Numbered from the stretch's first letter, positions 8,026 through 29,378 are shown. The stretch: 64,000 bases of DNA from Myxococcales bacterium (GCA_045863395.1 BTVJ01000014.1:32001-96000), one strand, 5' to 3'. Numbers and translations are program-made. The notes: generated from the letters alone by a model not told the origin.

Positions 8026-9339
8026 ATGGGAACGCCGCGCAATATCCTGATCCTTGGCGCCGCCGGGCGCGACTTCCACAACTTCAACGTCGTCTTCCGG
8101 GGTGACCCGGGCGCCCGTGTCGTCGCCTTCACTGCGACGCAGATCCCCGACATCTCGGGACGGCGGTACCCAGCGGCGCTTGCAGGCCCCCTGTACCCGG
8201 ACGGAGTGCCCGTCGCCGCCGAGGAGCGCATGGAGGCGATCATCGCCGAGGAGGCGGTCGACGAGGTGGTCTTCGCCTACTCCGATGTGACGCACGAGCA
8301 CGTCATGCACCTGGCGTCCCGTGTGGTGGCGGCGGGGGCCTCCTTCCGGCTGCTCGGCGCCCGTGAGACCATGCTGCGGGCGTCCGTGCCGGTGGTGTCC
8401 GTGTGCGCCGTGCGCACGGGCGCCGGCAAGAGCCAGACGACGCGGAGGGTCGTCGAGGCGCTGCGGGCCAGGGGCAAGCGCGTGGTGGTCGTCCGTCACC
8501 CCATGCCCTACGGCGATCTGGCGGCTCAGCGGGTGCAGCGCTTCGCGGCCCTGGAGGACCTGGACACCCACCGCTGCACCATCGAGGAGCGCGAGGAGTA
8601 CGAGCCGCACATCGCCGCGGGCACCACGGTCTTTGCGGGCGTCGACTACGGCGCCATCCTGCGGGAGGCGGAAGCGGAGGCCGACGTCATCCTCTGGGAC
8701 GGCGGCAACAACGACCTGCCGTTCTTCCGGCCGGACGTGGAGGTGGTCGTCGTCGACCCGCACCGGCCGGGGCACGAGCTGCGCTACTTCCCCGGGGAGG
8801 CGAACCTGCGCCGCGCCGGCGTCGTCGTGATCAACAAGGTGGACACCGCGGAGCCCGACGCGCTCGAGATCGTCCGGCGCAACGTGGCCGCGGCTGCCCC
8901 CGGGGCCGTCGTCATCGAGGCGGACTCGCCGATCACGGTCAGCGATCCCGCGGCGCTGGACGGCAAGCGCGCCCTGGTCATCGAGGACGGCCCGACCCTC
9001 ACCCACGGGGAGATGACCTACGGCGCCGGCTTCCTCGCGGCACAGGCCCACGGGGCGACGGTGGTGGACCCGCGTCCCTACGCCGTCGCGCGCATCGCCG
9101 ACACGTACCGTGCGTACCCGAGGACCGGCCCGGTGCTGCCCGCCATGGGCTACGGCGAGCAGCAGGTGCGGGACCTGGAGGCCACGGTCCAGGCGACTCC
9201 CTGCGACGTCGTCGTGGTGGGCACGCCCATCGACCTCCGGCGCCTGGTCGACTTCGGCAAGCCCGCAGTGCGCGTCACCTACGAGCTCGCCGAGCGGGGG
9301 CTCACCCTGGCGGACGTGCTGCGGGAGCGGCTGCCGTGA
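8026..9339 (+). CDS. COG2403-family P-loop NTPase (cyclic 2,3-diphosphoglycerate synthetase-like / arginine synthetase ArcE-like)
   Basis: ILGAAGRDFHNFN, VRTGAGKSQ, RHPMPYG, TIEEREEYEPH, WDGGNND, EDGPTLTHG and PAMGY; GGAGG RBS. Confidence 0.85.
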   Translation: MGTPRNILILGAAGRDFHNFNVVFRGDPGARVVAFTATQIPDISGRRYPAALAGPLYPDGVPVAAEERMEAIIAEEAVDEVVFAYSDVTHEHVMHLASRVVAAGASFRLLGARETMLRASVPVVSVCAVRTGAGKSQTTRRVVEALRARGKRVVVVRHPMPYGDLAAQRVQRFAALEDLDTHRCTIEEREEYEPHIAAGTTVFAGVDYGAILREAEAEADVILWDGGNNDLPFFRPDVEVVVVDPHRPGHELRYFPGEANLRRAGVVVINKVDTAEPDALEIVRRNVAAAAPGAVVIEADSPITVSDPAALDGKRALVIEDGPTLTHGEMTYGAGFLAAQAHGATVVDPRPYAVARIADTYRAYPRTGPVLPAMGYGEQQVRDLEATVQATPCDVVVVGTPIDLRRLVDFGKPAVRVTYELAERGLTLADVLRERLP

Positions 9340-9499
9340 CGGCCCGCGGGGTCGGGACCTGGTCCTGGGGTGGCTCTTGAGTTACCCGCCGCGGCAGACC
9401 CCGCAACACGCGGGGCCGGCCGTCTGTCATCGGGCGTCCCGATTCGTTATGTTGAGCCAAGCACGCCGTCGCTCCCCCGCAAGCGCTCGAGGTGTCCGC

Positions 9500-11815
9500 A
9501 TGTCCCGTGCCCCCGTCCTGGCGACCATCGCCGCCCTGTGGGCCCTGTCGCCCCTGCCGGCCTCCGGCGAGCCGGTCCCTGAGCCGCTGGCTCTCGTCCC
9601 CTCCGGCCCCGTCACGGTGATCGTCGGCCAGACTCTGGAGCTCCAGGCGTCCGGTGGGACCCCGCCGTACACCTGGATCTCCCTGGACCCGGGGGTGGGC
9701 GTGGTGGACGACGCCGGCGTGTTCCTGGCCGTCGGCGCCGGATCGTCCTCCACCACGCAGGTCCTCGTGCTGGATGCCGTCTCCTGCACTGCGGTGAGTG
9801 GAGAGATCACGGTCCCCAAGGACAGCGATGGCGACGGGCTCCCCGACACGTGGGAGCTCGCTCACGGCCTGCTGATCGGCGAGGACGACGCGGCGGCAGA
9901 CGCCGACGGCGACGGCGCGACCAACGCGGCGGAGTGGGGCGCCGGCAGCACACCGACCAAGGCGGACACGGACGGCGACGGCATGCCCGACGGGTGGGAG
10001 ATCATCAACGGGCTGTCTCCGGTGATGCCGGACGGCAGCGCTGACCCTGACGGCGACGGCCTGGACAACCTGCGCGAGTACCTGAGTGGCCACGACCCAC
10101 ACATGAGCGATGCCGGCATCGACACGGACGGCGACGGCATGGACGACGTGTGGGAGATCAACCACGGCCTCGACCCGGCCAGCCCGGCCGACGCGGCGGC
10201 GGACCCCGACGGCGACGGCCTCGTCAACGGCATCGAGCGGCTCGCGGGGACCAGCCCACACGAGGCCAACGAGCACCTCCCCGACGCGGACGGCGACTGG
10301 ATGCCCGATCCGTGGGAGATCGCCTGGGGGACCGACCCCCTGGTTGCCGACCACTTCGTCGACGCGGACGGCGACGGCTTCCCCCACTACCTCGAGTACC
10401 TGCTCGGGACCGACCCCTTTGGCCACAACGGCGCCCTCACGGACACGGACGGCGATGGCATGCCCGACCAGTGGGAGCGGACGTTTGCCCTCGACCCGGC
10501 GGTGGACGACGGCGACCTGGACGCCGACGCGGACGGACGCCCCAACCGGGTGGAGTACCGGGGGGCGACCAACCCCGCCGGCAAGGACGCGGACGTGGAC
10601 GGCGACGGCATGGCCGACCGGTGGGAGCACGGCTTCGCGGTGTCGGATCCGCTGGGCAACCCGGACAACGATCACCTGTCCAACGTGGAGGAGTTCAACA
10701 AGGGCAAGAACCCGCAGGTGCTGAACCCATACACGGTGGGGGTGGACCCATCGACGGCGGCGCTCGAGGTGGGGGAGCAGGTCACGCTGGCTTGTACCAA
10801 CGCCATCGGGCCGTGCACCTGGACCTCCGACGCGCCGGGGGTGGCGACCGTCGCCGGTGGGGTGGTGTCGGGGGTGGCCCCGGGGGTGGCGCTCGTGACC
10901 GCGCGTGACTCCAACGAGATCAAGGGGATCGGCGTGGTTGCGGTGCGGGAGTCGCCCGTCGCGGGGCAGCCGGAGCCGGTGGGGGTCCACCCCACGAGCG
11001 CAGCGCTGGTGGAGGGAGGGCGCCTCGCCTTCGCCGCCTTCGGTGGGGTCCGGCCGTATGGTGCGATCACGTCGTCGGACCCGGCGGTGGTCGCGGTGGA
11101 GGCAGACCTGGACACCGCGGGAGCTCCGGTAGGAACGGGGTGGCTCGCCGCCGGCCACGCGGGGCAGGCGACGGTGACCGTGAACGACGGCGGCGGCGCT
11201 ACCGCGACGATCACAGTGAGCGTGGCGGCCGGGGTGGTGACCGTGTCGCCGCCCTCCCTGTCGCTCGCGGTGGGTGAGAGCGCCGGCCTGTGGGCCACCG
11301 GCGCGGCTCCGCTCACGTTCCAGTCGGCGGACAGCGCCGTCGCGACGGTCGGTGCCTCCACCGGCAAGGTGACGGCCGTGGCGGCGGGCGTCACGCAGGT
11401 CGTCGTGACGGACGCCTTCCAGCGCCAGGCGGTGGTCGACGTCACGGTGGAGAACCCGGTGCTGATCCTGGCCCCCGAGGAGCTGACCCTCGCCGTCGGG
11501 GCCGGCGTCGCCCTGGTCGCCGTCGGGGGTGTGCCACCGTACTCGTGGGCGTCGAGCGACCCGGCGGTCTCCGTCGAGGCGGGGTACGCGCTGGCCGTGG
11601 CGTCCGGAGCAGCCGTCGTGACCGTGACCGACTCCGCCGGGCAGAAGGCGACCGCCACCGTGACGGTTGCGGCCGCGAGCGCGGCGGAGGGGTGCGGTGC
11701 AGCGCCCGCTGGACCCGCGGGGGTGCTGCCGGTGCTCGCCGCGCTCGCCGCGGTCCTCGTCGCGGTGCGGTTGACGTTCGGCCCTCGCAGGCGCAGAGTC
11801 GGGGCACCTGACTAG
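9500..11815 (+). CDS. Secreted surface protein: DxDGDG Ca-binding (TSP3-like) repeats, several Ig-like (Big_2-type) domains and a MYXO-CTERM-like tail
   Basis: Signal peptide; more than 10 DxDGDGxPDxWE / DPDGDGLxNxxE units; WxSxDPxVAxV...G.V.A...G.A.VTV Ig units; C-terminal GC motif + hydrophobic helix + RRRR. Confidence 0.85.
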   Translation: MSRAPVLATIAALWALSPLPASGEPVPEPLALVPSGPVTVIVGQTLELQASGGTPPYTWISLDPGVGVVDDAGVFLAVGAGSSSTTQVLVLDAVSCTAVSGEITVPKDSDGDGLPDTWELAHGLLIGEDDAAADADGDGATNAAEWGAGSTPTKADTDGDGMPDGWEIINGLSPVMPDGSADPDGDGLDNLREYLSGHDPHMSDAGIDTDGDGMDDVWEINHGLDPASPADAAADPDGDGLVNGIERLAGTSPHEANEHLPDADGDWMPDPWEIAWGTDPLVADHFVDADGDGFPHYLEYLLGTDPFGHNGALTDTDGDGMPDQWERTFALDPAVDDGDLDADADGRPNRVEYRGATNPAGKDADVDGDGMADRWEHGFAVSDPLGNPDNDHLSNVEEFNKGKNPQVLNPYTVGVDPSTAALEVGEQVTLACTNAIGPCTWTSDAPGVATVAGGVVSGVAPGVALVTARDSNEIKGIGVVAVRESPVAGQPEPVGVHPTSAALVEGGRLAFAAFGGVRPYGAITSSDPAVVAVEADLDTAGAPVGTGWLAAGHAGQATVTVNDGGGATATITVSVAAGVVTVSPPSLSLAVGESAGLWATGAAPLTFQSADSAVATVGASTGKVTAVAAGVTQVVVTDAFQRQAVVDVTVENPVLILAPEELTLAVGAGVALVAVGGVPPYSWASSDPAVSVEAGYALAVASGAAVVTVTDSAGQKATATVTVAAASAAEGCGAAPAGPAGVLPVLAALAAVLVAVRLTFGPRRRRVGAPD

Positions 11816-11841
11816 GGGGACCCGACCCGAGGAGGACGAGC

Positions 11842-12399
11842 ATGAAGCGTGTAGCGACGGCGGTGTTGGTTGTGCTGATGCTGGCGACCCTGGCGCACGC
11901 CCGCACCAAGGAGGGGGTGACCATGCCCGACGAGGTCGTCCTCGAGGGCAAGAAGGTGGTCCTGAACGGCATGGGCCTGCGCGAGGCCACGGCGCTCAAC
12001 GTCGATGTCTACGTGGCGGGCCTCTACCTGGAGAACAAGTCCTCGGACGGCCGCGCCATCGCGGAGTCCAATGAGACCAAGCGGCTGGTGCTGCGCTTCG
12101 TCCGGGATGTCGACGGCGACGACATCTCCAGCGCGTGGACCGAGGGCTTCAAGAAGAACTCGGCGGCGGCGGTGCCGGCCCTGCAGGCACGCATCAACAA
12201 GCTCAACGGCTGGATGCAGGACGTGGAGGACGGTCAGTCCCTCGTCTTCAACTACATTCCAGGAAAGGGGCTCCAAGTCATCGTCGACGGCGCCAAGAAG
12301 GGGTTCATCGAGGGGGAGGACTTCCAGAAGGCGTTCTTCCTGATCTTCCTCGGTGATCCGCCCAACGCCGGCCTCAAGTCGGGGCTGCTGGGCAAGTAG
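11842..12399 (+). CDS. Chalcone isomerase-like periplasmic protein
   Basis: Signal peptide; LNGMGLR...VDVYVAGLYL, F...FFLIFLG.PP...LKSGLLG; strong GAGGAGG RBS. Confidence 0.85.
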   Translation: MKRVATAVLVVLMLATLAHARTKEGVTMPDEVVLEGKKVVLNGMGLREATALNVDVYVAGLYLENKSSDGRAIAESNETKRLVLRFVRDVDGDDISSAWTEGFKKNSAAAVPALQARINKLNGWMQDVEDGQSLVFNYIPGKGLQVIVDGAKKGFIEGEDFQKAFFLIFLGDPPNAGLKSGLLGK

Positions 12400-13048
12400 C
12401 CGCGTCGAGGCGCCCTGTCCACCGGCCCTTCGCCCCAAAGCGCGACAGCAGCTCCCGGCGCTCCTCTCGCGGCACCTCGCACCACGCCTTGTGGGGGCCC
12501 GGGGCGCCCCGGAGCTGCAGCTCTCCCATCTCCTCCAGATAGGCGCCCAGGGAGGCGTGGACCTCGCGGCGCTCCTCCTCCCAGCCCGGCTCCATGAGGG
12601 CGCGGGCCTCGCGGGGGTCTTGCAGCGAGTCCCAGGGCAGCGGCGCGTGGAGGCGCGACGGTGGCACCCACACGGTGGAGCCGCAGCGCTCGGTGGGGCG
12701 GTTCAGCGCCAGGAGCAGGGTGGCGGTCGTGTGAACGGGGGTGTCCTCGGTGGCCCGGCACGGGTGGAGCCGGAGCGGCTCGAGCAGCGCCAGGGTGCCG
12801 AAGTGGGCGGCGCCGAGCACCCCCTCGTGCAGCGGAGCCTCCGCGACCCAGAGCCCTTGGACGGTGGCCGGGCCGAGCTGCGGGAGCCCCATGCCCCACA
12901 GCTCCCGGAGACCGCAGGGGCCCGGGTAGCGGAACAGGGTGGGGCAGGCGTCATCGGGCGCGAAGGGGCGGGCCACGGCGCGGAGCCACGCCGGGGGGCG
13001 GTAGCGCTGGCCGGAGCGCGACTCGAACTGGGCAACGGTCTCGCGCAT
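12374..13048 (-). CDS. Hypothetical protein
   Basis: Protein-like ORF with AGGAG RBS before ATG 13048 and a TATGCT -10-like hexamer upstream; no family recognised. Confidence 0.55.
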   Translation of the reverse strand: MRETVAQFESRSGQRYRPPAWLRAVARPFAPDDACPTLFRYPGPCGLRELWGMGLPQLGPATVQGLWVAEAPLHEGVLGAAHFGTLALLEPLRLHPCRATEDTPVHTTATLLLALNRPTERCGSTVWVPPSRLHAPLPWDSLQDPREARALMEPGWEEERREVHASLGAYLEEMGELQLRGAPGPHKAWCEVPREERRELLSRFGAKGRWTGRLDAATCPAAPT

Positions 13049-13140
13049 GGTGTGCTCCTGGTGGGTGAGCATAGCGGCGAAGGAACCGCAGGGAAAGGTG
13101 CCTCGACAGGGACGGGGCGCTCCCGCTACCCTCGGGCCCC

Positions 13141-14133
13141 ATGACGGTTGGCATGGTCCTCGGCAAGTTCCTCCCTCCCCACGCGGGGCACGTCCACTTG
13201 GTGGAGACGGCGGCGGCCCAGGTGGATCGGCTGATCGTACTGGTGGGGACCCTGGAGCGGGAGCCGATCCCCGGCGCTGTGCGCGCTGGGTGGATGCGCC
13301 AGCTCTGCCCGCCCAACGCGACGGTGGTGCACGTCACGGACGAGAACCCTCAGGAGCCGCACGAGCACCCGGACTTCTGGGACATCTGGGTGGGGACCAT
13401 CCGCCGCGCGTGCCCGGAGCCGCCCGACGTGGTGTTCTCCAGCGAGGCGTACGGCGACGAGCTGGCGCGGCGCCTGGGGGTCCGACACATCGCCGTGGAT
13501 CCGGCGCGGGCGACGGTGCCCGTGTCAGGGACGGCCATCCGGGCCTGTCCGGCCGCCTGTTGGGAGCACATTCCACGGGTGGTGCGGCCGTGGTTCGCGC
13601 GGCGGGTGGTGCTCACCGGCGCCGAGTCCACGGGCAAGACCACCATGGCGGCTCGCCTGGCCGCACACTATGGGGTCCGGTGGGTGCCGGAGTTCGCGCG
13701 GGAGTACATCGGGGGCCGGGGGGACGTGTTCGGCGTCGACGACATGGAGCCCATCGCCGAGGGACACGCGGCGTCCGAGAGCGCGGCCCTCGGGGAGCAC
13801 CCGGTGCTCTTCTGCGACACGGACGCCATCGTCACCAGCGTCTACAGCGCGTGGTACTTCGGGCAGGTGCCACCCCGCGTGGCGGCCCTCGCCGACGCGA
13901 GCCGCCCGGACCTGAGCCTGCTCTTCCACCCCGACGTGCCGTGGGTCGCGGACCCACAGCGAGACCTGCCCCACGTGCGGCTCGCCATGCACGAGAGGTT
14001 CCGCTCCGCGCTCCAGGTTCGCGGGCTCCGGTGGGCGGACGTCACGGGCGGGTGGGACGAGCGCTTCGCCCGGTGCGTGGCGGCCGTGGACGCGCTGTTG
14101 CGGGAGCCCATGCAGCCCAGCGCTGCCCGGTGA
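13141..14133 (+). CDS. NadR-like NMN adenylyltransferase / ribosylnicotinamide kinase (no HTH domain)
   Basis: GKFLPPHAGH (HxGH nucleotidyltransferase), VSGTAIR, then GAESTGKTT P-loop, EFAREY, FCDTD, and DVPWVADPQR. Confidence 0.88.
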   Translation: MTVGMVLGKFLPPHAGHVHLVETAAAQVDRLIVLVGTLEREPIPGAVRAGWMRQLCPPNATVVHVTDENPQEPHEHPDFWDIWVGTIRRACPEPPDVVFSSEAYGDELARRLGVRHIAVDPARATVPVSGTAIRACPAACWEHIPRVVRPWFARRVVLTGAESTGKTTMAARLAAHYGVRWVPEFAREYIGGRGDVFGVDDMEPIAEGHAASESAALGEHPVLFCDTDAIVTSVYSAWYFGQVPPRVAALADASRPDLSLLFHPDVPWVADPQRDLPHVRLAMHERFRSALQVRGLRWADVTGGWDERFARCVAAVDALLREPMQPSAAR

Positions 14134-14205
14134 CCCGCCAGAGGGGCTCTCGCCAGCGCGCCGCCGACTGTGCTAGTGGTGGGCCCTCTCCCGGAGGTGC
14201 TGTCC

Positions 14206-15495
14206 ATGCTCCAGCGCGTCGTCGTACTTGGCCTTGGCCTCGTTTTCGCGGGGAGCGCCGCCGCGGGTCCGCCCGATGCGCTGCTGGAGCGCGCCCGTGG
14301 CATCCTGGCCACGACGCCGCTCATCGACGGCCACAACGACCTCCCATGGCAGGTGCGGGACCGTGCCGGGGGGAGCCTCGATGACCTGGATCTGGCCTCT
14401 GACACGGGCCGCCTCGACCCGCCCATGCACACGGACATCTCACGCCTTCGAGCGGGCGCCGTGGGCGGAGTCTTCTGGTCCGTGTACGTGCCCGTGGACC
14501 TGAAGGCGGCCGTGCAGGCCACCTTCGAGCAGATTGACGTCGTCCATCGCATGGCGGCCCGGTGGCCAGAGACCTTCACGGTGGCGCGCACGGCCGACGA
14601 GGTCATGGCAGCCTTCCGCGCCGGCCGCGTCGCGTCCTTGATAGGAATGGAGGGCGGGCACTCCATCGGCGGGTCCCTGGCGGTCCTCCGCCAGGCCTAC
14701 GCCGCGGGCGCCCGTTACATGACGCTGACCCACTGGAAGAACACGGCCTGGGCGGACGCGGCAACGGACACCCCACGGCACAAGGGTCTGACGGCGTTCG
14801 GGCGGGAGGTCGTCCGCGAGATGAACCGCCTCGGCATGCTGGTGGACCTGAGCCACGTCTCCGTCGCCACCATGCACGCGGCCCTCGACGTGGCGGAGGC
14901 GCCGGTGATCTTCTCGCACTCCGGTGCGCGCGCAGTCTGCAACCACGTCCGAAACGTCCCCGACGACGTGCTCCTGCGGCTGCGCGACAACGGCGGCGTC
15001 GCCATGGTCAACTTCCTGCCGGCCTACGTCTCCGACAAGGTGCGTCTGCGGGGCACGGTGGAGGCTGCGGAGCGGGCCCGCCTGGACGCCTTGCACGTGG
15101 GCGACCCGGACGGCGCGGCGACGACCCTGGCGGCGTGGCGCAAGGCGAACCCCGCGCCCCGGGCGACCCTCTCCCAGGTGGCCGACCACATCGACCACGT
15201 CCGCAAGGTGGCCGGCATCGACCACGTGGGCCTGGGCTCGGACTTCGACGGCTTCGACCGGGGCCCGAGGGGCCTGGAGGACGTCTCCCGCTTCCCCGAC
15301 CTCATCGCGGAGCTCCTGCGCCGCGGCTACACGGACGAGGAGGCGGCGAAGGTGGCTGGCGGCAACGTGCTGCGGGTGCTGCGGCAAGCGGAGGCCGTGG
15401 CCGCTCGGCTGCAGAGCCAGCGCCCCCCGTCGGAGGCCCGCATCGAAGAGCTGGACCGGCCCACGGGGGGAGCCAAGGAGCGCTCGTCGCGGTGA
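14206..15495 (+). CDS. Membrane dipeptidase (peptidase M19), secreted
   Basis: [36 protein letters not shown] and GLGSDFDG; signal peptide. Confidence 0.93.
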
Positions 15496-15510: not shown

Positions 15511-18500
15511 CTATGGCGACGTCTGAATCACCAGGAAGGTGGTGCCCACGGTCAAGCCGGCGGAGGTCTTGTCCGCCGCCGCGACGCCCGTGACCCAGAC
15601 CTCCGCGGGGGCGCCCGGCGGGATGCTCTGGTCGATGGTGAAGTGCAGCGTCATGAGCACCGGGTCGCCCATGACGACCCCTTGCTGGATCCAGGCGTCG
15701 GTCAGGGGGACCGTCGGGTCCGAGGCGTTGGCGAGGATCATGGTCCCGACGCCCACCCAGTTGGAGAGCTGGTTCGGCTGCATGCTCAGGGAGTGGCCGC
15801 TCTGGAGTGAGCTGAACGGCGACGGGATGGTCCACGGGAACCCGAAGATCGGGTGGACCCCGTCGCTGATCTGGTTGAAGACGAGGCGCGTGTCGTAGTG
15901 CAGGGTGAGCTGGAGGGCGGCCGCGGGGAGGTCTCCCTGGGCAGTGCGCGCGAGCTGGACCTGGCACTCCACCGTCTCACCCACCTCGCCCGTCAGCACG
16001 CAGAGGAGGCCGTAGCCCGGGTCCTCGCAGGCCGCGTAGGGGGTGCCGCCGCAGACCTGCGCCACGCACACGTCGGCCGTCGTGCAGGCGTCCCCGTCGT
16101 CGCAGGGGGTGCTGTCTGCCGCCGGGATGCCGCAGGCGCCCGTCGCCGGGTTGCAGACGTCCAGGGTGCAGGGGTCGCCGGTCGGCGGGCAGGTGATGGT
16201 GATCCCTGCGCAGCCGGCGGCGGAGCAGGTGTCGTCGACCGTGCAGGGGTTGCCGTCGTTGCAAGACGCGCCCACCGAGGGCGAATGGACGCAGCCCTCC
16301 TCGGCGGTGCAGGAGTCCGTCGTGCACGGATCGCCGTCGTCGCAGTCCAACGTGGCGCACTGAGCCTGCGGCACGTCGAAGGTGACCAGGGGCACGAACA
16401 CGCCCGCCGCCGGGTCCGTCACGCGGCTGCCGAGGAAGGCCACGCTCTCCACGATACCGCCGACCGGGTCGAGCACGTCGAGGATGATCACCACGCCCAC
16501 GCCAACCTCTGGCGTCGTCAGGCCCGACACGGTCGTGGCCCAGGTGCCGCCGCCCATCGGGGCGCCCGCCCCCATGCGCCCGTCGAGGGTCGCGACCGAC
16601 GCGCTGGAGAAGGCCAGGGCCCCGGCGTTGGCCAGGGTGCGGACCTCGAAGCTCACGGCGAGCTGCGTGTCGACCGGAGCCTGCTCCCGGTCGCGGATGG
16701 TCGCGACCAGGTCCCACTGCCCGGGTCCTGACGGCGTCGCCTCGGCGGAGACGAAGTGGGTGAGGCGCGCCAGCACGCGGCTCAGGAAGTAGGCGTCGTT
16801 GACGTTGACCGCGCCGTCGGGGAAGGCGTCCGCCTTCGAGAGCTGCCCCGGCGTCATGGTCACGAGCCCTGCGAGGGCCTGCTGCACGAAGAGGCCGTCG
16901 TTGGCGGCCAGCGAGCAGTCGTCGTTGGCGTCGCCGAGCACCGGGTCGTTGGGGCAGGCCGGGTCCAGGTCACCCGCGCCAGCGATGAGGTTGCGCGGCG
17001 TGGGGGGGCCGATGGCGGTGGTGCCGTCAATGGCGACCACCTGCTTGATCACGCCCTCGACCGGGGTGATGGCGGGGCCGGCCGACTTGATGGCCCGGAA
17101 CTGGATCTTGGCGATCTCGACGGCGGACCCGCTCGGCGGAGACCCCGTCGGTGACGAGAAGCCATTGATGAAGACCGTGCCAGGCGTCGTGCTCGCGTTG
17201 CCGCTGAAGGTCGTGCCAGCGCCGAGCCCGGCCCCGGGGGTCACGCCCATCGCCTCGATGACCGCCGGGTCGAAGTGGATCTCCAGGTCGAAGGCGCCCA
17301 GCCCCGCGCCGCCCGTGTTGATGCGCACCGGCATGGTGAACAGCTCGTTGGGCAGCCGGTCCTTGTGGGCGAGCCCGGACGTGTCGCCCAGGTCCACGTC
17401 GCCGGTCGCCGGGGTCAGGTTGCAGGCGATGGGCACGGCGACGGGCGGTCCGAAGGCGGCCCCCGCGTCATTGGCCACGTCCACGGTCAACGAGGTCGGG
17501 CCGTTGCCCCGGATGGTCGCGAGCCCCGTCGCGCTGATCGTCGCGAACTGGGTGGCCGTCGACGCGAAGTCCAAGAGCCCCGCGACGAGGTTGGCGCCGG
17601 TGAGCTGGCGCCGCGTCCCGTCGGAGAAGGTGCCCCACACGGTCATCTGCGTGGTGCCCGCGTCCTTGACCCCCGAGAACGTCGCCCCGCTTGCGACGGT
17701 CGCGGTCAGGGCCACGAGGTCCACGTGGCCGCCGTCCACGTCCATGGGCACCGCGTTGGAGGCGTGACCCACGCTGGTCCCGACGATCTCCGCGGTGCCC
17801 GTCGCGACCGCGCTGACGACCCCGCCGCTGATGGACAGCACGCCGGCCTTGGGCGCCTTGGTCACCGGGTCGCGCACCACCCACACCGTGTCGGGCCGGG
17901 TCGTGATGTTCACGCTCGCGCCGTTGCTGAAGGTCTCGACGAGCTCCAAGAGCGCGGTCTGGCGCGTGGTGGTCCCCTCGATGTACGAGAGCAGTGACTC
18001 CGGCGCCTTGGGCCCGCTCGGGGTGTACGGCTCCCAGGCGCTGAGCTGGAGTGCGCCGTGGGTGACCACCTCGACGGTGGCCTCGGCGAAGACCTCCGCA
18101 GGGAAGGTGTCGAAGGTGACCCGGACCTTCGCCGTGCCCACCCCGTTGCCCGTGGAGGTGACGAGGCCCGAGCCCGACACCGTGATCAGGTCGTCCGGGT
18201 CCAGCGTGGTCGCGTCCCACTGGGTGCGGGGGTCGTTGGTGAAGTCGGTGCTCGACCCGTCGACGTAGTGGACGGTGACGGTGAGCTGCTTCGTGACGGG
18301 CAGGTTCAGGTGCGTGGCCGCCGTGTCCGTCGGGCTCAGGGCCAGGTCGAAGGTCGCGGGGCTCAAGCTGGCGCTCGACGCCGCGGGGAGCACCACGTTG
18401 ATGGGGCCCTCGCCGACGGCGAGGGTGCCCGCGGCGCCGTCCCCGAGGACCGCCTGCACGTCCGTCAGGCCGGAGCCGATGGCGGTGACCAGGCCGTCCT

Positions 18501-21500
18501 CATCCACCGTCACGATGCCCGGCGCCTCCGCCCCGAAGCTCAGCCACGGGTGCCCGGTGACGTCCATGACGCTCCCGCCGTTGGTGTCTCCGTCGTCTGA
18601 GAAGCGCAGGAAGGTGTGGGCCTGCACGGTCGCGTACTCCGCGTCCAGGAAGGCCGTCGCGCGGAGGCGGCCGTGGACCTCGCCGACCTGTGCCGCGATG
18701 GGCGTGCCCGGCGAGACGGGCAGGGTCTCCACCTTCGCGGGCAGGACCACGTCGAGGGACACGGGCGTGACGGGGGTCGCCGACACCGTCACCGTGGCCG
18801 ACCCGAGGGGCTGGCCGGCTACGGAGGCGGCGATGGTCGCGGCGCCGGGCGTGGCCGCCGTCACGGCACCCGTCGGGCTCACGGTGGCCGCGGTGCCCTG
18901 CACCGACCACGAGACGAGGGACCCGAGATCGACGGTGAACGACACCGGCCCGCCGCGGAACGTCGCCAGGGCGCGCGCGCGGGTCGACTGCCAGCCGCCG
19001 AGGCCCGTGATCGGCTGGAGCACCGGGTCGCCGAGCACCACGTCCACGGGCAGCTCCAGGGCCGCGACCCGGAGGGGGACCGTGGCGGTGTGGCCCGCGG
19101 CGGTCACGACGATGGAGGCGAGCCCGCCGTAGGAGCCGGCGACGGCCACGCAGCCCGCCTGGACACCGAGCACCGCCGGGTTGGTGGAGATGCAGGAGGT
19201 CCCCCCGCTGGCGGCGATGTCCGTCGTCGTCGCGTCGGACCGCAGCCCGAGCACGTGGATCTGCGACGTGCGAGCGAGCCCCGGGATGCCGGCAAGCCCC
19301 ACGAGCTGGTGCTCGGTGGCCCACACCTGCAGGCCCGTCACGGAGATTGTGGCGACGGTGACCTGCCCCGTCGTCGATGAGCCTGAGCCATCCCGCAGGA
19401 CCATCGGCGCGTTGGTGGCGAGCTTCGTCAAGGAAGTAGAGTACAAATCGACCAAGAGGCCCGTGATCTGGGTCACAGCACCCGGGGTCGCCCCAGGCTT
19501 GATCTGGAACGTGACGGTCGCCACGTGGACGGTGTCGCCGGAGGCGCCCGGGCTGCCCACGCTCTCGTTGATGGCGTTGAAGGCGAGGGTGCCCGTGGTG
19601 TTGGCGTCGCCGCCCGCGTTGTGTACGGGCAGCCCCATCGGGGCGGCGGCCCCCTTGGCCACGGCGGTCACCGCGAGCACGGCGGGATCGAAGAAGAGGC
19701 GCGCGTCGTAGCTGCCGATGGACTGGCCCGCCGAGTGGATGAGCACCGGCACCTGGAAGGTCGTGCCCGCATAGCGCGGCCCGAGCGGGAGGCGGGCGCC
19801 GGCGGTGGCTGGTGCGAGGGCCAAGGGGGCGGGCGACGCGACCGCGGTGACGGCCACGGGCGCGGACGCGACGGGCCCCGACGTCGCGACGACGGAGAGG
19901 GAGCCCCCGCCGCTCAAGGCCGCGCCCGGGATGTTCAGGTTGGTCTCGCAGCGGCCGTCCGCCCCGAGGGAGCAGGAGAAGGACCCCGACCAGGCACCGG
20001 TGACCGTCAGGGTCACGCCGGTGCCCGTGGCGGCCTGGCGCCCCTCCGTGTCGCGACCCGTGACCCACGCGCGGGTCAGGGAGTCGTCCTCGCGGAGCGT
20101 CAGCGCCGACAGCGAGAGGTCCAGCGACCCGATGGGGCCGGCGCTCACCGCCAGGGGCGCAGCGCCGCCCGGCACGCCCAGCGCCTCGCCGGAGACCGCG
20201 CCCGAGCGGTTCGGGCGCGCGAGGCCCACGATGGCGGACGCATACTTGCCCTCGCCGATGGTCTCCACGATGCCCGAGGCCGCGCCGACGCTGGACGAGA
20301 AGACGACGGGGAGCCACGGAACGCCGGGCTCGATGGGGTCGCAGGGCTCCTCGTCCGTCGAGCCGTCGCAGTCGTCGTCGGCGCCGTTGGCGCACAGCTC
20401 CAGGCCCGTGGAGCCAGCACAGACACCGGCGCCGCACTCGTCGAGCGCCGTGCACGGGTCGCCGTCGTCGCAGTCCGTGCCGTCGATGCCGGCAACCCCG
20501 CACGAGCCGGTCAGCGGGTCACACACATCGAGGGTGCAGACGTTTCCGTCGGCCGTGCACGTCGTTGGCGCGCCCGGCAGGCAGGCGCCAGCGAGGCAGG
20601 CGTCGCCGGTGGTGCAGAGATCGCCGTCCTCGCACGGCGTCCCATTGTCGGGGACCTGGCTGCACGCGCCGGTCTGCGGGTCGCACACGCCGGCCGTGCA
20701 GGGGTTGCCGTCCTCGCTGCACGACAGCGGGGTGCCCGGCTCGCACGCGCCGGCGGCGCAGGCGTCGTTGAGGGTGCAGGCGTTGCCGTCGTCGCAGGGG
20801 CCCGGGGCGGCCACGCCGCAGAGCCCCGTGGCGGGGGTGCAGACGTCTGCGGTGCAGGGGTTGCCGTCGTCGGGGCAGGTGACGGGGGCGCCCGGGGCGC
20901 AGGCGCCTGCGGAGCAGGTGTCGCCGAGCGTGCAGGCGTCGCCATCGTCGCAGGGCGCGCCGTTGACGAAGGGCAGGCCGCAGAGGCCCGTGGCCGGGGC
21001 GCACACGTCCACGGTGCACACGTCGCCGTCGTCGGGGCAGGTGACCTCCGCGCCGGCGCAGCCGCCCGCGCCGCACACGTCCCCGGTCGTGCACAGGTCG
21101 CCGTCGTCGCACGGCAGCCCCGGGGCGGCCGTCCAGCCGACGGGGTCTGTCGCGAGCGCGCACACGAGGCACGGGTCGTCCGCCTTGGTGGCGCCGTCGG
21201 CGACGCAGAGCCCGCCGATGTCGCACTTGTCGGGGCAGGTGCAGGCGTTGATTGCGGTGGGGACGCTCGCCGGGTTCAGTGGATCGGTGCCGTTGAGCGC
21301 CTCGCAGGTGTCGGGGAACCCGTCGTCGTCGTCGTCCGGGTCGCAGCCGTTGTGCAGGCCGTCGAGATCCGGGTCGTTCTGGGCGAGCAGCGCCGTCACC
21401 CCCTCGTCACCGCTCAGCTTCACGAGGCGTATCAAGATGATCTGCTGTACGTCGAGCACGTTGATCTTGCCGTCGCACTGGAGGTCCACGTCCGCGTCGG

Positions 21501-21690
21501 GCAGCGACTGGCAGGGCGGGTCCGCCTCGCCCTGCGCGTTGGCCAGGGTCGCCAGGATGTAGCAGTTGACGTCGCTGACGTTGACCAGCTCGTCGCCGTT
21601 GATGTCCCCGGTGTGCAGGGGCAGGGCGAGAGCGGGGGCGGTCATCGCTGCAATGGCCGCGAGGACGTACAGAGGGGTGCGCAGGGACAT
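15511..21690 (-). CDS. 2059-aa secreted multidomain adhesin/scaffold: 2 dockerin-like, 3 cohesin-like and multiple Ig-like domains, Cys-rich repeats; TMEM132-like core
   Basis: Signal peptide and GGAGG RBS. Dockerins: GDINGD..VNVSD / DLQCDGKINVLD and GDANDD / ADAFPDGAVNVND. Cohesin starts: FQVPV..IGSYDARLFFDP and FTMPVRI..LGAFDLEIHFDP. More than 10 CDDG(N/D)xCTxxDxC repeats. Confidence 0.85.
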   Translation of the reverse strand: MSLRTPLYVLAAIAAMTAPALALPLHTGDINGDELVNVSDVNCYILATLANAQGEADPPCQSLPDADVDLQCDGKINVLDVQQIILIRLVKLSGDEGVTALLAQNDPDLDGLHNGCDPDDDDDGFPDTCEALNGTDPLNPASVPTAINACTCPDKCDIGGLCVADGATKADDPCLVCALATDPVGWTAAPGLPCDDGDLCTTGDVCGAGGCAGAEVTCPDDGDVCTVDVCAPATGLCGLPFVNGAPCDDGDACTLGDTCSAGACAPGAPVTCPDDGNPCTADVCTPATGLCGVAAPGPCDDGNACTLNDACAAGACEPGTPLSCSEDGNPCTAGVCDPQTGACSQVPDNGTPCEDGDLCTTGDACLAGACLPGAPTTCTADGNVCTLDVCDPLTGSCGVAGIDGTDCDDGDPCTALDECGAGVCAGSTGLELCANGADDDCDGSTDEEPCDPIEPGVPWLPVVFSSSVGAASGIVETIGEGKYASAIVGLARPNRSGAVSGEALGVPGGAAPLAVSAGPIGSLDLSLSALTLREDDSLTRAWVTGRDTEGRQAATGTGVTLTVTGAWSGSFSCSLGADGRCETNLNIPGAALSGGGSLSVVATSGPVASAPVAVTAVASPAPLALAPATAGARLPLGPRYAGTTFQVPVLIHSAGQSIGSYDARLFFDPAVLAVTAVAKGAAAPMGLPVHNAGGDANTTGTLAFNAINESVGSPGASGDTVHVATVTFQIKPGATPGAVTQITGLLVDLYSTSLTKLATNAPMVLRDGSGSSTTGQVTVATISVTGLQVWATEHQLVGLAGIPGLARTSQIHVLGLRSDATTTDIAASGGTSCISTNPAVLGVQAGCVAVAGSYGGLASIVVTAAGHTATVPLRVAALELPVDVVLGDPVLQPITGLGGWQSTRARALATFRGGPVSFTVDLGSLVSWSVQGTAATVSPTGAVTAATPGAATIAASVAGQPLGSATVTVSATPVTPVSLDVVLPAKVETLPVSPGTPIAAQVGEVHGRLRATAFLDAEYATVQAHTFLRFSDDGDTNGGSVMDVTGHPWLSFGAEAPGIVTVDEDGLVTAIGSGLTDVQAVLGDGAAGTLAVGEGPINVVLPAASSASLSPATFDLALSPTDTAATHLNLPVTKQLTVTVHYVDGSSTDFTNDPRTQWDATTLDPDDLITVSGSGLVTSTGNGVGTAKVRVTFDTFPAEVFAEATVEVVTHGALQLSAWEPYTPSGPKAPESLLSYIEGTTTRQTALLELVETFSNGASVNITTRPDTVWVVRDPVTKAPKAGVLSISGGVVSAVATGTAEIVGTSVGHASNAVPMDVDGGHVDLVALTATVASGATFSGVKDAGTTQMTVWGTFSDGTRRQLTGANLVAGLLDFASTATQFATISATGLATIRGNGPTSLTVDVANDAGAAFGPPVAVPIACNLTPATGDVDLGDTSGLAHKDRLPNELFTMPVRINTGGAGLGAFDLEIHFDPAVIEAMGVTPGAGLGAGTTFSGNASTTPGTVFINGFSSPTGSPPSGSAVEIAKIQFRAIKSAGPAITPVEGVIKQVVAIDGTTAIGPPTPRNLIAGAGDLDPACPNDPVLGDANDDCSLAANDGLFVQQALAGLVTMTPGQLSKADAFPDGAVNVNDAYFLSRVLARLTHFVSAEATPSGPGQWDLVATIRDREQAPVDTQLAVSFEVRTLANAGALAFSSASVATLDGRMGAGAPMGGGTWATTVSGLTTPEVGVGVVIILDVLDPVGGIVESVAFLGSRVTDPAAGVFVPLVTFDVPQAQCATLDCDDGDPCTTDSCTAEEGCVHSPSVGASCNDGNPCTVDDTCSAAGCAGITITCPPTGDPCTLDVCNPATGACGIPAADSTPCDDGDACTTADVCVAQVCGGTPYAACEDPGYGLLCVLTGEVGETVECQVQLARTAQGDLPAAALQLTLHYDTRLVFNQISDGVHPIFGFPWTIPSPFSSLQSGHSLSMQPNQLSNWVGVGTMILANASDPTVPLTDAWIQQGVVMGDPVLMTLHFTIDQSIPPGAPAEVWVTGVAAADKTSAGLTVGTTFLVIQTSP

Positions 21691-24986: not shown

Positions 24987-26265
24987 ATGAGCACCGCCTA
25001 CCATGCGCGCTACGGAGCGCTGGAGCTGCGGCGCCGGGGGGTCTCGGGGGAGGTCGAGGCCCTCGGCTCCGCCCTGTTCGACGCGCGCGTCGACCTGAAC
25101 CCGCACCAGATCGAGGCCGCCCTGTTCGGGCTCCGCGCCACGGCAGAGAGCGGCCGGCTCCTCGCCGACGAGGTGGGCCTCGGCAAGACCATCGAGGCGG
25201 CCCTCGTGCTGTGCCAGCGGTGGGCCGAGCGCCGGCGCCGGCTCCTCGTGGTCTGCCCCGCCGCCATCCGCAGGCAGTGGTGCGCCGAGCTGGAGTCGAA
25301 GTTCGGTCTGCCCGTCCGCTTGGTGGAAGGCCGCTCCGACGCCAACCCCTTCGACGTGCCCGCCGTGGCGGTCGCCTCGTACCCCTACGCGGCGCGCCGT
25401 GCCTCGGACCTCGCCGCCGTGCCGTGGGACCTCGTGGTCTTCGACGAGGCGCACCGCCTGCGCAACGCCTGGAAGAGCGACAGCCGCCAGTCGGCGACGC
25501 TGCTCTCCTCCCTTGCGGCGGCGCCCAAGCTGCTGCTGACGGCGACCCCGCTCCAGAGCTCGCTCCTCGAGCTCTACGGGCTCGTCAGCGTGCTCGACCC
25601 CCACGTCTTCGGCGACGTGGATGCCTTCAAGGCCCGCTTCGTGAAGGGCCGCCCCGACCTCGCCGCCCTGCGTGAGCGTTTGCGCGGCGTCTCCAGCCGC
25701 ACGCTGCGCCGCTCCGTGCTGCCCTACATCCAGTACACGAGCCGCCGCTCCCTCACTGAGCGCTTCCGGTCGTCTCCCGAGGAGCGCCGTCTCTATGGGG
25801 CCGTCTCCGAGCTCCTCGCCCGCGACGCCCTCCTCTGCCTGCCTCGCTCGCAGCGGGCGCTCGTGACCATGGTGCTCCGCAAGCTCCTGGCCTCCTCGTC
25901 GGCGGCGATCGCGTCGGCGCTCGGCACCCTGCGGGACCGACTGCATGCGCAGCAGGCCCCCGACCCGGCCGCCTTCGACGACGAGGGCCTCGACCCCGAG
26001 TGGGCCGACGTGGTCGAGGAGCCCGACGCGCCGCAGGAGGCCACTGCCGAGCGCGTCGCCCGCGAGATCGAGGAGCTGGATGGCCTCGTGGCGCTGGCCC
26101 GCTCCATCGGCACCGACCAGCGCATGCGGGCCTTGCTGCGGGGGCTTCGCCGTCGAGGACGAGGTCCGCGCCCGCCGCCGCGAGCTCCTCGACCGCATTG
26201 AGAAGCAGCTCGCTAAGGCCAGCGAGCGGATGCCCGTGGTCACCGTCGCGTTCACCGTCGTCTGA
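24987..26265 (+). pseudogene. SNF2-family helicase with an internal deletion (HelicC domain lost)
   Basis: LNPHQIEAA, LADEVGLGKT, QWCAEL, FDEAHRLRN, LLTATPLQ and LASSSAAI. After MRALLRG (about 26143) the sequence jumps frame to a C-terminal-like FAVEDEVRARRRELLDRIEKQL...FTVV*. Confidence 0.8.
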
Positions 26266-26333
26266 CCCCGTGTGCGGGGCGAGGGGATGTGCTCCCCGGG
26301 GGACGGGCCGCGTCTGACCCCGCGTGCGGGGGG
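26260..26333. repeat. Two copies of the GTCTGACCCCG(T/C)GTGCGGGG REP-like motif
   Basis: Copies at 26260 and 26312, each with a CCCCG...CGGGG hairpin. Confidence 0.7.
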
Positions 26334-26421
26334 AGGAGAGCCCAAGCCAGGGGAGAACGCGGTTGCGCCAATACCCACCGCTGGGCTATGAATGGGCGGG
26401 GCCGTTGCCAAAGAACCACCG

Positions 26422-26936
26422 GATCGGGCAGGGGGCAGACCGTGGAAGAACCCGTCAGCTCGGTTGGAGTCGACGCGGAGGGGCCGGCGACCCCTCTGCG
26501 TGTGAAGGCAGTCCTCGATGCCTTCCAGGGGATCGAGCGACTCGCGACCGAACAGATATCGGTCATCGGGAGCACTGTCGTACACAGCCCCGTGCTGCGG
26601 GTCGGTCGGTCGTCAGACAAGCGGCGAGCGCACTGGGCCGCACGCATCAAGGTCTACGGCGAGCTGCTGGACGTGCCGGCAGTCGAGTCCACCAGACCGA
26701 AGCTCATCCAGGCTCTGGACCAGGGGCGCACCGTCGCAGCGCGCATACACGCACGCTGGGTGCGGGCCGACGACGAGTCCTGGGCCATCGACCTGGCACA
26801 CTCGCGGATCACCGAAGTGACCGACTCCGAGCGCGTCCAGGCCGAGCCAGGCACCTGGAGCACATTGCCCGGCGTCATCTCGCAGTCGCGGGTAGCGCAG
26901 CTCCTGGCGGAGGAGGCAGCCGAGTGGGACGGGTAG
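26422..26936 (+). CDS. Hypothetical protein (start uncertain, possibly a fragment)
   Basis: Protein-like segment of ORF 26289-26936; lower GC than the flanks; its stop overlaps a PIN-like stub. Confidence 0.4.
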
Positions 26937-27020
26937 CCATCGACAGCAATGTCCTCATTCGGGCGCTGGCCGCGATGCCCATGGATGTCGCGGCCGTTGA
27001 TCACGTTACGTCTGCCTGCG
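26924..27020 (+). pseudogene. PIN-domain N-terminal stub
   Basis: GGAGGAGG RBS, then GTG-GRVAIDSNVLIRAL (PIN D-S/T-N motif); it runs into the convergent endonuclease gene. Confidence 0.4.
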
Positions 27021-27022
27021 TG

Positions 27023-27823
27023 CTACGTGGAGACCCTTCGATAGGTGTCAAGGTCGACGCTCGATATCTCGCCCCGTGGAACGAGTTTGTAGTGACGCTC
27101 GTCCACCATTCGAACATCCTCTCCATCAATGGTGAGTTCGAACAAGGCGAGCAACTGGTCCTCGATGAACTGTGCTCCAACCGGACGACAGATCAGTGAC
27201 GGAAACTTCTCCAAGCAGCAGCGGACATCCTGCTTCGTTTGAACAGCACCGAGCTGGTCCGAGCCTCCCTTGGCTTGAATGGGAATGACGAACTGTCTGC
27301 CGTGCTTGTCCACGCCCACATAGACTTCGTCAATCTCAATCTGTCCAATCCCTTTGACGGTCGTGCGAAGATGATTCTGGAGAGAGTACGTGGCAAGACC
27401 AAGAAACAGGTCAATCAACCGATTGTATCGAACCACGGCCAGCAGCGCCTGCTCATCCGAAAGGGAGTATTGAGAGATGATTTCGGGAGTGGCATTGGGA
27501 ATCTAGATCGGTTGAAGCAATGGATTCGGTCGGATTCGGTTGATCGGGACGAGACGGAACGTGTAGGTAGAACGGCCAGTGCCCTCGATGACCCACACCT
27601 TCCCTGCGGGTTGCGTTGCAGTGATCGTAGCGGGCATCGCCGCTCGATATCGAATAGAGTACAGGACGTCACCCAGGTTCTTCGGAAGCTCGATCCCAAG
27701 CGTGACGGCGGCAGCAACGAGGTCTTGCCGGTGAAATGGGACATCCTCGCAGCCGGGCGTGTAGGAGTCCCGGAATACCTTCTCGACCAGCGCCACATAC
27801 CGATTCCGAGTGCTGCTACCCAT
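27023..27823 (-). pseudogene. Putative type II restriction endonuclease with an in-frame TAG at 27503-27505
   Basis: ORFs 27503-28078 and 27023-27436 share a frame: LLQPI*IPNATPEII...RYNRLIDLF...QIEIDEVYVG...IPIQAKGG (PD-(D/E)xK-like). ATG 27823 overlaps the methylase stop. Confidence 0.75.
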
Positions 27824-29153: not shown

Positions 29154-29378
29154 CGTACCTCCCGCCACGACTGTGATGCCGTGGTGCTCACTCAGGGGCC
29201 TCTCCCATAGCATGGCTGGAGCTGCTCGTCAAACGTTCAGTACGGCGCGGGCAGCGACACCGGGGGGATGCTCCCGTCCGTACCCACGTCGGGGCGTCGT
29301 GCCGCGGGAAGATCGCGGAGATTCGGGCAGATGCGAACGCGGATCCGTTCGGGCAGCGGTCCGGCAGCCGGCTGTGCG

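Follow-up and report, generated by a model that had tools for sequence, protein, structure and literature searches.

A very probable homologue of the TMEM132 ectodomain core within a predicted secreted protein of a myxobacterium

The window, a stretch of 64,000 nucleotides from an uncultured Myxococcales bacterium, encodes on its minus strand a predicted secreted multidomain protein of 2059 amino acids (P0001; 15511–21690). Residues 521–1102 of this protein form one conserved unit, or cassette, which consists of an Ig-like domain with a cysteine pair, a cohesin and three Ig domains. On the sequence comparisons set out below, we consider it very likely that the cassette is genuinely homologous to the core of five domains in the TMEM132 ectodomain; the kinship appears settled at the level of the family, with P0001 alone giving weak matches. 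The best joint explanation, in which this homology is combined with a role of the protein as a surface scaffold or adhesin, is in our judgement probable. Animal TMEM132 adhesion proteins have a five-domain block of this kind as their outer part, and its presence in a myxobacterium suggests that it did not first arise in animals or their nearest kin.

The 2059-aa reading frame described in an earlier note on this DNA can be taken as a real gene because it has full-length homologues of 2071–2073 aa at 61–79% identity. All of its features lie on the minus strand. The translation begins with a putative Sec signal peptide (21625–21690; aa 1–22, ending in ALA ahead of LP), at which the same reading of the translation found no lipobox cysteine. 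It is followed by Dockerin 1 (21436–21609; aa 28–85), a weak match to a bacterial TSP3-type calcium-binding repeat (21271–21336; aa 119–140; PF18884, 14.8–17 bits against a cut-off of 25), and a first Cys-rich block of Dicty_CTDC-type repeats (20311–21243; about aa 150–460), where PF00526 gives 35.9 bits in 4 stretches, compared with 56.1 bits in 7 stretches over the entire protein. Beyond the cassette lies a beta-rich stretch of about 260 aa (17605–18384), made up of additional domains that are probably Ig-like; it is colinear with the eukaryote-like protein P0143 discussed below and shows only a faint Big-like match. Next comes a second copy of an Ig domain plus cohesin (16978–17604; aa 1363–1571), which matches cassette positions 34–248 internally (E 3e-8) and contains cohesin 2 (PF00963, 41.1–42.7 bits, over the gathering score); at least 10 relatives' ORFs likewise have a second cohesin 1–1.3 kb 3′ of the cassette. 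Dockerin 2 (16771–16938; aa 1585–1640) is directly 3′ of cohesin 2 and aligns with a dockerin-like segment of P0143. The dockerin model PF00404 scores 32 bits on the entire protein (cut-off 22.9), and singly 22.8–23.8 bits on Dockerin 1 and 19.7 bits (E 0.001) on Dockerin 2. The C-terminal part holds a second Cys-rich Dicty_CTDC-type block (15991–16368; about aa 1775–1900; best PF00526 stretch at aa 1782–1804) and a last domain (15514–15993) with a partial, sub-threshold cohesin match at aa 1900–1936 (PF00963, 22.1 bits against 24.1, model positions 9–43 only). P0001 thus has two dockerins, two or three cohesins, a TSP3 repeat and two Cys-rich blocks, and no catalytic domain.

The cassette itself is modelled by AlphaFold2 as five beta-sandwich domains (mean pLDDT 89.9, pTM 0.69). 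Domain 1 (19840–20130) is an all-beta, Ig-like sandwich with C573 and C581 (block pLDDT 87–96) and, as modelled, corresponds to the 'conserved region', or 2nd domain, of TMEM132. Domain 2 (19351–19809) is cohesin 1, matched by PF00963 at aa 640–743 with 38.4–41.1 bits against a cut-off of 24.1, so that the cohesin expected in this ORF is present (38.4–39.6 bits where that claim was checked); the same model matches at the cassette cohesin position in 14 of 19 copies (E≤1). The assignment of these two domains draws mostly on generic cohesin matches and on the predicted fold. Domain 3 (19057–19347) is an Ig domain of the TMEM132 4th-domain (BIG1) type, matched by PF16070 below its cut-off in P0001 and containing C833 and C847. 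Domain 4 (18781–19053) is placed where TMEM132 has its 5th domain (BIG2), with Big_2 matches of 15–18 bits in P0001 and PF23486 matches in a few homologous cassettes. Domain 5 (18385–18768) stands at the 6th-domain (BIG3) position, as judged from the Big-like model PF22359 (16–25.8 bits), from PF23487 scores just under the cut-off in homologous cassettes and from the AlphaFold2 fold, which has a low-confidence loop at aa 995–1006. The earlier note had placed a TMEM132-type ectodomain at 18385–20125, equal to aa 522–1102, and had quoted nine motifs in a stated order. All nine occur in that order between aa 570 and 1099 (at aa 570–588, 634–649, 831–847, 880–896, 900–911, 918–926, 962–983, 1027–1032 and 1089–1099).

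The ectodomain of animal TMEM132A–E is represented in Pfam by PF23481, PF23039, PF16070, PF23486 and PF23487 (Sanchez-Pulido and Ponting 2017, PMC6030884). In P0001, PF16070 reaches 14.5–17.5 bits by hmmscan and 19.6 bits in the genome search (E 0.004–0.035; model positions 5–66 of 98), below its cut-off of 27, and this match, at 19138–19323, is the sole one in the genome. The same model matches 7 of 61 relatives' genomes at E≤0.01 and passes its cut-off in five of the 61, where single, near-full-length matches of 27.2–56.5 bits lie at the same cassette position; eight of the nine genome matches fall within cassettes, and none of 14 control genomes was matched. On individual relatives' cassettes it scores 34.5 (L017) and 39.1 bits (L019). 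Among 30 scanned representatives, nine pass the cut-off with 31.7–87.6 bits in one stretch covering nearly the full model, and single-stretch matches of this kind occur with no Big_2 match at that domain. The TMEM132-specific profile match that had been predicted is therefore found in the relatives' cassettes, while P0001 itself stays below threshold; at the level of the family, the matches go beyond generic Big_2 and cohesin models.

Matches to the other TMEM132 models are sparser. PF23486 is over its cut-off in two of the 30 representatives (P0126, 34.1 bits; P0128, 28.5 bits) and in one of the 61 genomes, adjoining a 4th-domain match (G059:C48); elsewhere it gives 13–24 bits, and of six weak matches one, in L016, falls on an Ig domain other than the expected one. 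PF23487 scores at best 23.7–25.8 bits against a cut-off of 27.8 (L019, P0126 and P0150), as single stretches of near-full model length at the expected cassette position, and none of the 61 genomes was matched at E≤0.01. In the representatives, the TMEM132-model matches run in the order 4th, 5th, 6th. PF23481, for the 2nd domain, matches one of 19 cassette copies, weakly (15.5 bits), and PF23039, for the 3rd, matched no cassette. The N-domain model PF15705 found nothing in P0001 (E≤10) or in the 19 cassette copies taken exclusive of upstream sequence (E≤1), nor did PF15706, for the transmembrane region and cytoplasmic tail, in P0001 (E≤10). P0001 as a TMEM132 family member in its own right was considered and rejected: its PF16070 match is sub-threshold, and it lacks a membrane anchor, a cytoplasmic tail and an N-domain.

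These modest scores could also be read as those of a generic bacterial array of a cohesin and Big_2-type Ig domains, with likeness to TMEM132 at the superfamily level and a coincidental domain order. In P0001, the Big_2 and Big-like scores are about as high as that of PF16070, and generic tandem Big_2 arrays do cross-match the TMEM132 Ig models, with summed scores of 37.2 bits on PF16070 and 28.7–46.5 bits on PF23486. Because of this cross-matching, the weak 5th- and 6th-domain matches are not specific on their own. PDB searches by sequence and by fold found no TMEM132 chain; Foldseek gave generic multi-Ig chains (S-layer proteins, Nup210, invasin), and the best sequence match, a teneurin-like protein, covers Big_2 repeats only. 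However, no single stretch of the generic arrays passes a TMEM132 model, and those proteins score 248–509 bits with Big_2, whereas the single-stretch, full-model PF16070 matches in bacterial genomes and in representatives come without Big_2 at that place and are absent from the control genomes. The five domains, moreover, are kept together as one unit: 18 copies of the full-length unit at 25–35% identity occur in 17 relatives' genomes.

Two further lines of evidence speak against coincidence. First, hhalign matches the myxobacterial alignment (A1) to the strongest PF16070 scorers with a probability of 100% and an E-value of 6e-53 over 562 colinear columns, from positions 11–586 of A1 and 90–684 of P0126. 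These scorers, P0126, P0143 and P0150, reach 77–88 bits on PF16070 compared with 14.5–19.6 in P0001, and the positions of the quoted motifs in P0001 align with them residue for residue. Second, the cysteine pairs agree with the TMEM132 disulphide predictions, which place one bond within BIG1 and another between BIG2 and BIG3 (PMC6030884, supplement legend). Among 177 cassette copies, the domain 1 pair (C573/C581 in P0001) co-occurs in 129; for the BIG1-internal pair (C833/C847), both cysteines are present in 131 copies, neither in 37 and one in nine; and for the pair linking the a-b loop of BIG2 with the f-g loop of BIG3, which P0001 lacks, both are present in 95, neither in 58 and the first only in 24. 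The BIG1-internal and BIG2–BIG3 pairs co-occur as would be expected of disulphides and, as far as sequence can indicate, fit those predicted for TMEM132. The reading as a generic array is already largely refuted, and we regard it as very improbable. The earlier proposal of a prokaryotic homologue of the TMEM132 architecture is supported by the relatives' PF16070 matches together with the colinear alignment.

The direction in which the cassette travelled is a separate matter. Cassettes are portable in bacteria, with one or several used per giant surface protein, and the bacterial family has many members, which have diverged deeply: when 1.84 billion representatives were searched with a profile, 663 proteins came up at E≤1e-30, and the 156 of them that were stored contain 159 full-length copies. 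P0126, P0143 and P0150 are rich in serine, threonine and asparagine and have 9–11 N-x-S/T sites per cassette, a composition and sequon density that suggest a eukaryotic, probably protist, origin. Their nearest ESM Atlas clusters are chordate TMEM132 clusters (0.93, 0.87 and 0.84), and that of the P0001 cassette itself is a eukaryotic cluster bearing PF16070 (0.93), neighbours that also speak for the homology. It could be that the cassette arose in eukaryotes, in holozoans or other protists, and moved into bacteria, the myxobacterial copies being secondary. In line with this, the strongest TMEM132-model matches are these eukaryote-like proteins with eukaryotic neighbours, and the distribution is patchy within the phylum sample, where the full-length cassette occurs in 14 of 301 genomes, all in the window's own class. 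On the other hand, cohesins, dockerins and Big_2 domains belong chiefly to prokaryotes (PMC6030884), the size and divergence of the bacterial family have to be accounted for, and the extended bacterial layout (the cassette, then more Ig domains, then a second cohesin with a dockerin) recurs in the eukaryote-like P0143. We therefore think that the extended layout was carried whole, whichever the direction. A eukaryotic source seems unlikely. Homology of the cassette with the TMEM132 core is the reading carried forward here.

As for function, the role we hold most likely for P0001, at about even odds, is that of a scaffold or adhesin at the cell surface that depends on calcium. The protein would be exported through the Sec pathway and would belong to an extracellular structure of this kind, in which the disulphide-stapled cassette could act as a stiff stalk that presents the cohesin. 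Cohesin–dockerin contacts might then join P0001 to itself and to six other dockerin-bearing, enzyme-free, Cys-rich proteins. Several cohesins in a single secreted protein, in a genome assembly (97% complete, 186 contigs) with seven Dockerin_1 places and three Cohesin places, might instead bring to mind a cellulosome-like scaffoldin that gathers dockerin-bearing enzymes. Yet at E≤0.001 no enzyme domain turned up in any of the other six ORFs with dockerins, which contain TSP_3 or Dicty_CTDC repeats, and the genes neighbouring P0001 encode no glycoside hydrolases. A cellulosome-like role is accordingly very improbable, the least likely of the alternatives considered, and a scaffold or adhesin free of enzymes is the reading we favour.

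Clostridial scaffoldins and non-cellulosomal cohesin–dockerin proteins have genuine cohesin and dockerin modules, as does P0001, and calcium-dependent plug-and-socket assembly would be the expected mechanism. P0001 differs from them in that dockerin-bearing enzymes were not found, in that cohesin and dockerin lie on one polypeptide, and in that the organism is Gram-negative. With the ectodomain of TMEM132A–E, the cassette very probably shares the order of five domains, in which the conserved region with its cysteine pair and a cohesin precede three Ig domains of BIG type, and both have a cysteine pair inside the first BIG domain; the BIG2–BIG3 pair of TMEM132 is found in many bacterial copies but not in P0001. 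P0001 has no N-domain (PF15705), transmembrane helix or tail with PP1 or WIRS motifs, its cohesin fits the generic cohesin model and not the TMEM132-specific one, and its cassette is about 24% identical to the nearest TMEM132-like proteins. Unlike in TMEM132A–E, the cassette is set within a predicted secreted protein of 2059 aa that also has dockerins, Cys-rich repeats and additional cohesins.

The eukaryote-like proteins P0126, P0143 and P0150 are colinear with the cassette over the 562 columns noted above and match the TMEM132 models far more strongly than P0001 does. P0143 aligns with aa 479–1648 of P0001, a span that takes in the additional Ig domains, cohesin 2 and the dockerin. Finally, the coherins, hedglings and lefftyrins of choanoflagellates and sponges (PMC6030884), compared here by description, are membrane-anchored and have cadherin repeats alongside their TMEM132-like module, where P0001 has dockerins and Cys-rich repeats; in these proteins, as in P0001, a TMEM132-like module is embedded in a much larger extracellular protein of adhesion type.

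The cassette of interest lies within a secreted 2059-aa ORF (P0001; window 15511-21690, minus strand; from the ORF list and translation), and the gene is real because it has three full-length homologues of 2071-2073 aa with 61-79% identity. All nine sequence strings quoted in the earlier note as TMEM132-like were found in the order given there, at aa 570-1099, and the cohesin said to lie among them is a Pfam match above cut-off at aa 640-743; the interval proposed for the ectodomain corresponds to aa 522-1102. The protein as a whole contains two clear cohesins (aa 640-743 and 1447-1544; 38-43 bits against a Pfam cut-off of 24.1), a third that is partial and sub-threshold (aa 1900-1936; 22.1 bits), two dockerins (aa 28-85 and 1585-1640; 32 bits summed over both), two blocks of Dicty_CTDC Cys-rich repeats and one weak TSP3 repeat. 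Its N-terminus reads, on inspection, as a putative Sec signal peptide without a lipobox; neither a catalytic domain nor a membrane anchor was found. Contamination by eukaryotic DNA is ruled out by the GC content of the gene (72-74%), the bacterial genes on both flanks and the homologues in 14 genomes of the class.

The surroundings hold several other features. A membrane dipeptidase gene (Peptidase_M19, 387 bits; window 14170-15495, plus strand) is convergent with the giant gene, facing its 3′ end, with no evident functional link. A 901-aa ORF (9110-11815, plus strand) scores 88 bits for bacterial TSP3 repeats and, weakly, 25.8 bits for the calcium-binding domain of binary-toxin B/PA-type proteins, and is probably another secreted calcium-binding protein. 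GC content across the window is 63-78%; at 26001-30000 it is 63-65%, compared with 70-74% on both sides, and this stretch includes an ORF for a C-5 cytosine DNA methylase (27816-29213, minus strand; 209 bits). Because of the GC drop and the methylase, the stretch may be a foreign island or a restriction-modification element.

The cassette, which consists of an Ig-like domain with a cysteine pair, a cohesin and three BIG-type Ig domains, is conserved as a unit. With aa 521-1110 as the query, matches were obtained in 23 of 61 genomes (the window's own and 60 relatives), most of them spanning all 590 residues at 24-35% identity. The ORFs of the relatives reach 14,117 aa and sometimes contain the cassette twice, and 18 copies from 17 genomes were aligned full-length with the window copy (alignment A1). 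A sample of 301 genomes of the phylum contains 14 with full-length cassettes, and every one of these belongs to the window's own class; elsewhere in the sample there were two matches, restricted to Ig domains. A search for related loci with a five-row alignment returned nine, annotated as uncultured Myxococcales or "Proteobacteria" MAGs, and the same kind of search with the single 2059-aa protein found no locus. When 1.84 billion representative proteins were searched with the profile, 20,385 reached E≤0.001, a set in which generic Ig proteins are probably numerous, and 663 reached E≤1e-30; 156 proteins from this search carry 159 full-length cassettes (≤5 per protein).

Does the cassette match TMEM132 specifically? 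In the window's own protein, the TMEM132-specific Pfam match that the earlier note proposed to look for stays under threshold: PF16070, the model of the fourth TMEM132 domain, is the only such model to match, at aa 790-850, and its 14.5-17.5 bits (E 0.004-0.035) fall short of the 27-bit cut-off. In relatives the cut-off is passed: two of the 19 aligned copies, L017 (34.5 bits) and L019 (39.1 bits), do so in a single stretch that covers the whole model and falls on the first Ig domain after the cohesin. At its third Ig domain, L019 also matches positions 2-112 of the 116-position model PF23487 (sixth domain) with 24.3 bits. When the 61 genomes were searched in six frames with PF16070, seven of them yielded a total of nine matches, and five of the seven passed the cut-off. 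All but one of the nine fall in cassette places, and the window's own genome contributes a single match, at window 19138-19323; the 14 control genomes gave none. In a scan of 30 representatives, the PF16070 cut-off is passed by nine (31.7-87.6 bits) and that of PF23486, the fifth-domain model, by two (34.1 and 28.5 bits); scores on PF23487 go up to 23.7-25.8 bits, and the order is always fourth, fifth, sixth.

The other TMEM132 models contribute little. PF23487 matched none of the 61 genomes at E≤0.01 and PF23486 matched one; PF23481 (second domain) matched one cassette copy, at 15.5 bits, and PF23039 (third, cohesin-like domain) and PF15705 (N-domain) matched in no scan of the cassette copies. 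In copy L016, a weak fifth-domain match (PF23486) sits on the wrong Ig domain. Specificity was controlled with ten generic Big_2-rich proteins, seven of them Ig-array proteins from the representative search and three others (P0005-P0007). The latter three had no TMEM132 match; among the seven, P0113 scored 37.2 bits summed on PF16070, and P0117 and P0153 scored 28.7 and 46.5 bits on PF23486. In P0113, P0117 and P0153 no single stretch passes, coverage of the model is partial, and Big_2 scores 248-509 bits. Because generic Big_2 arrays cross-match TMEM132 models in this way, the weak fifth- and sixth-domain matches are not specific on their own. The specific evidence is (i) the single-stretch, full-model PF16070 match without competing Big_2; (ii) the colinear unit; and (iii) the cysteine pattern.

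Two disulphides have been predicted for TMEM132 (PMC6030884). One would be internal to the first BIG domain, between its c and d strands, and the other would connect the third BIG domain, at its g-f loop, with the a-b loop of the second. Over 177 cassette copies, both cysteines of the first-BIG pair are present in 131, neither in 37 and one in nine; for the interdomain pair (BIG2-BIG3) both are present in 95, neither in 58 and the first cysteine only in 24; and for the pair in the pre-cohesin domain the counts are 129, 34 and 14 (both, neither, one). Of these three pairs the 2059-aa protein contains two, C573/C581 in the first domain and C833/C847 in the first BIG domain, and is without the interdomain pair. 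An AlphaFold2 model from alignment A1 shows five beta-sandwich domains (mean pLDDT 89.9, pTM 0.69), with low confidence confined to a single loop (cassette residues 475-486). Foldseek with this five-domain model retrieved generic multi-Ig chains from the PDB at query-normalised TM-scores of 0.12-0.27. By sequence, the PDB gave nothing with a single query, and no TMEM132 chain by sequence or profile search; a teneurin-like chain from the profile search (E 9e-21) was dismissed, as the match is confined to generic Big_2 repeats.

The strongest scorers, P0126, P0143 and P0150, look eukaryotic from their composition, being S/T/N-rich with 9-11 N-x-S/T sites per cassette. When A1 was compared by hhalign with an alignment of these proteins, the two aligned over 562 colinear columns (probability 100%, E 6e-53). 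In the ESM Atlas, whose scores are leads and not tests, the nearest clusters to P0126 are chordate TMEM132 (0.93, 0.87 for a "T132A protein", and 0.84) and haptophyte (0.90), and the nearest to the window cassette is a mostly eukaryotic cluster bearing PF16070 (0.93). A search for homologous proteins with P0126 returned nothing but P0126 itself, and so no animal TMEM132 sequence.

The interval of the earlier note covers only part of the conserved unit. In the 2059-aa protein, the cassette is followed by ~350 aa of Ig-like sequence, a second "Ig + cohesin" (aa 1363-1571; E 3e-8 against the first copy) and, directly after it, a dockerin (together window 16771-17604, aa 1363-1640); at least 10 of the relatives' ORFs likewise encode a second cohesin, 1-1.3 kb to the 3′ side of the cassette. 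P0143 matches this extended order, its alignment spanning aa 479-1648 (24% identity, E 2e-33) and taking in the Ig domains, cohesin and dockerin that follow the cassette. Because that alignment begins ~40 residues ahead of the cassette, with aa 12-71 of P0143 pairing with aa 479-530 (window 20101-20256), the unit may start further upstream than defined here. An upstream extension of the "conserved region" has likewise been suspected for TMEM132 (PMC6030884).

Three cohesin places are present in the genome: the giant gene accounts for two, and the third is in a stand-alone ORF of ~218-251 aa on contig C1 (L035:1260-1913), whose product is a candidate anchor for dockerin-bearing proteins. There are seven dockerin places. 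The six other dockerin ORFs, three of them close together on contig C6 (L033:1313-2065, 11023-12387 and 12559-14499) and the rest on C47 (L031), C125 (L032) and C22 (L034), contain repeats of the TSP_3 or Dicty_CTDC type; none of the six has an enzyme domain at E≤0.001. With three cohesin and seven dockerin places and enzyme-free dockerin ORFs, the inventory fits a structural, calcium-dependent network made up of Cys-rich surface proteins better than it does a cellulosome. In such a network, the surface proteins would be joined in plug-and-socket fashion through cohesin-dockerin pairs.

Finally, we consider the origin of the architecture, which the available text of two papers places in holozoans (PMC6030884; PMC13692072). 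The literature on TMEM132 with prokaryotes or dockerin, represented mostly by titles and abstract openings, yielded no report of a bacterial TMEM132-like cassette, and InterPro species lists may already show bacterial matches. Complete colinear cassettes, present both in myxobacteria and across many further giant proteins of microbes, widen the known range and make a bacterial origin plausible. A FastTree of the 177 copies gives no conclusion on the direction of transfer because it has neither an outgroup nor animal sequences. As a tentative reading, on balance somewhat doubtful, the animal TMEM132 ectodomain might derive from a myxobacterial-type surface cassette that was once paired with dockerins of the same protein and passed from bacteria to eukaryotes before animals arose; in that case, a dockerin-like segment with a calcium loop, or a degenerate remnant of one, would be the long-sought binding partner of the TMEM132 cohesin. 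Vertebrates themselves have no dockerins. The dockerins within the same protein in bacterial and protist relatives offer a practical handle on what the cohesin binds, because simple recombinant domains would suffice for a binding test. The 2059-aa protein is itself not a member of the TMEM132 family: the two share the five-domain core, but the bacterial protein lacks the N-domain, membrane helix and cytoplasmic tail of TMEM132, and has its core joined instead to dockerins and Cys-rich repeats.
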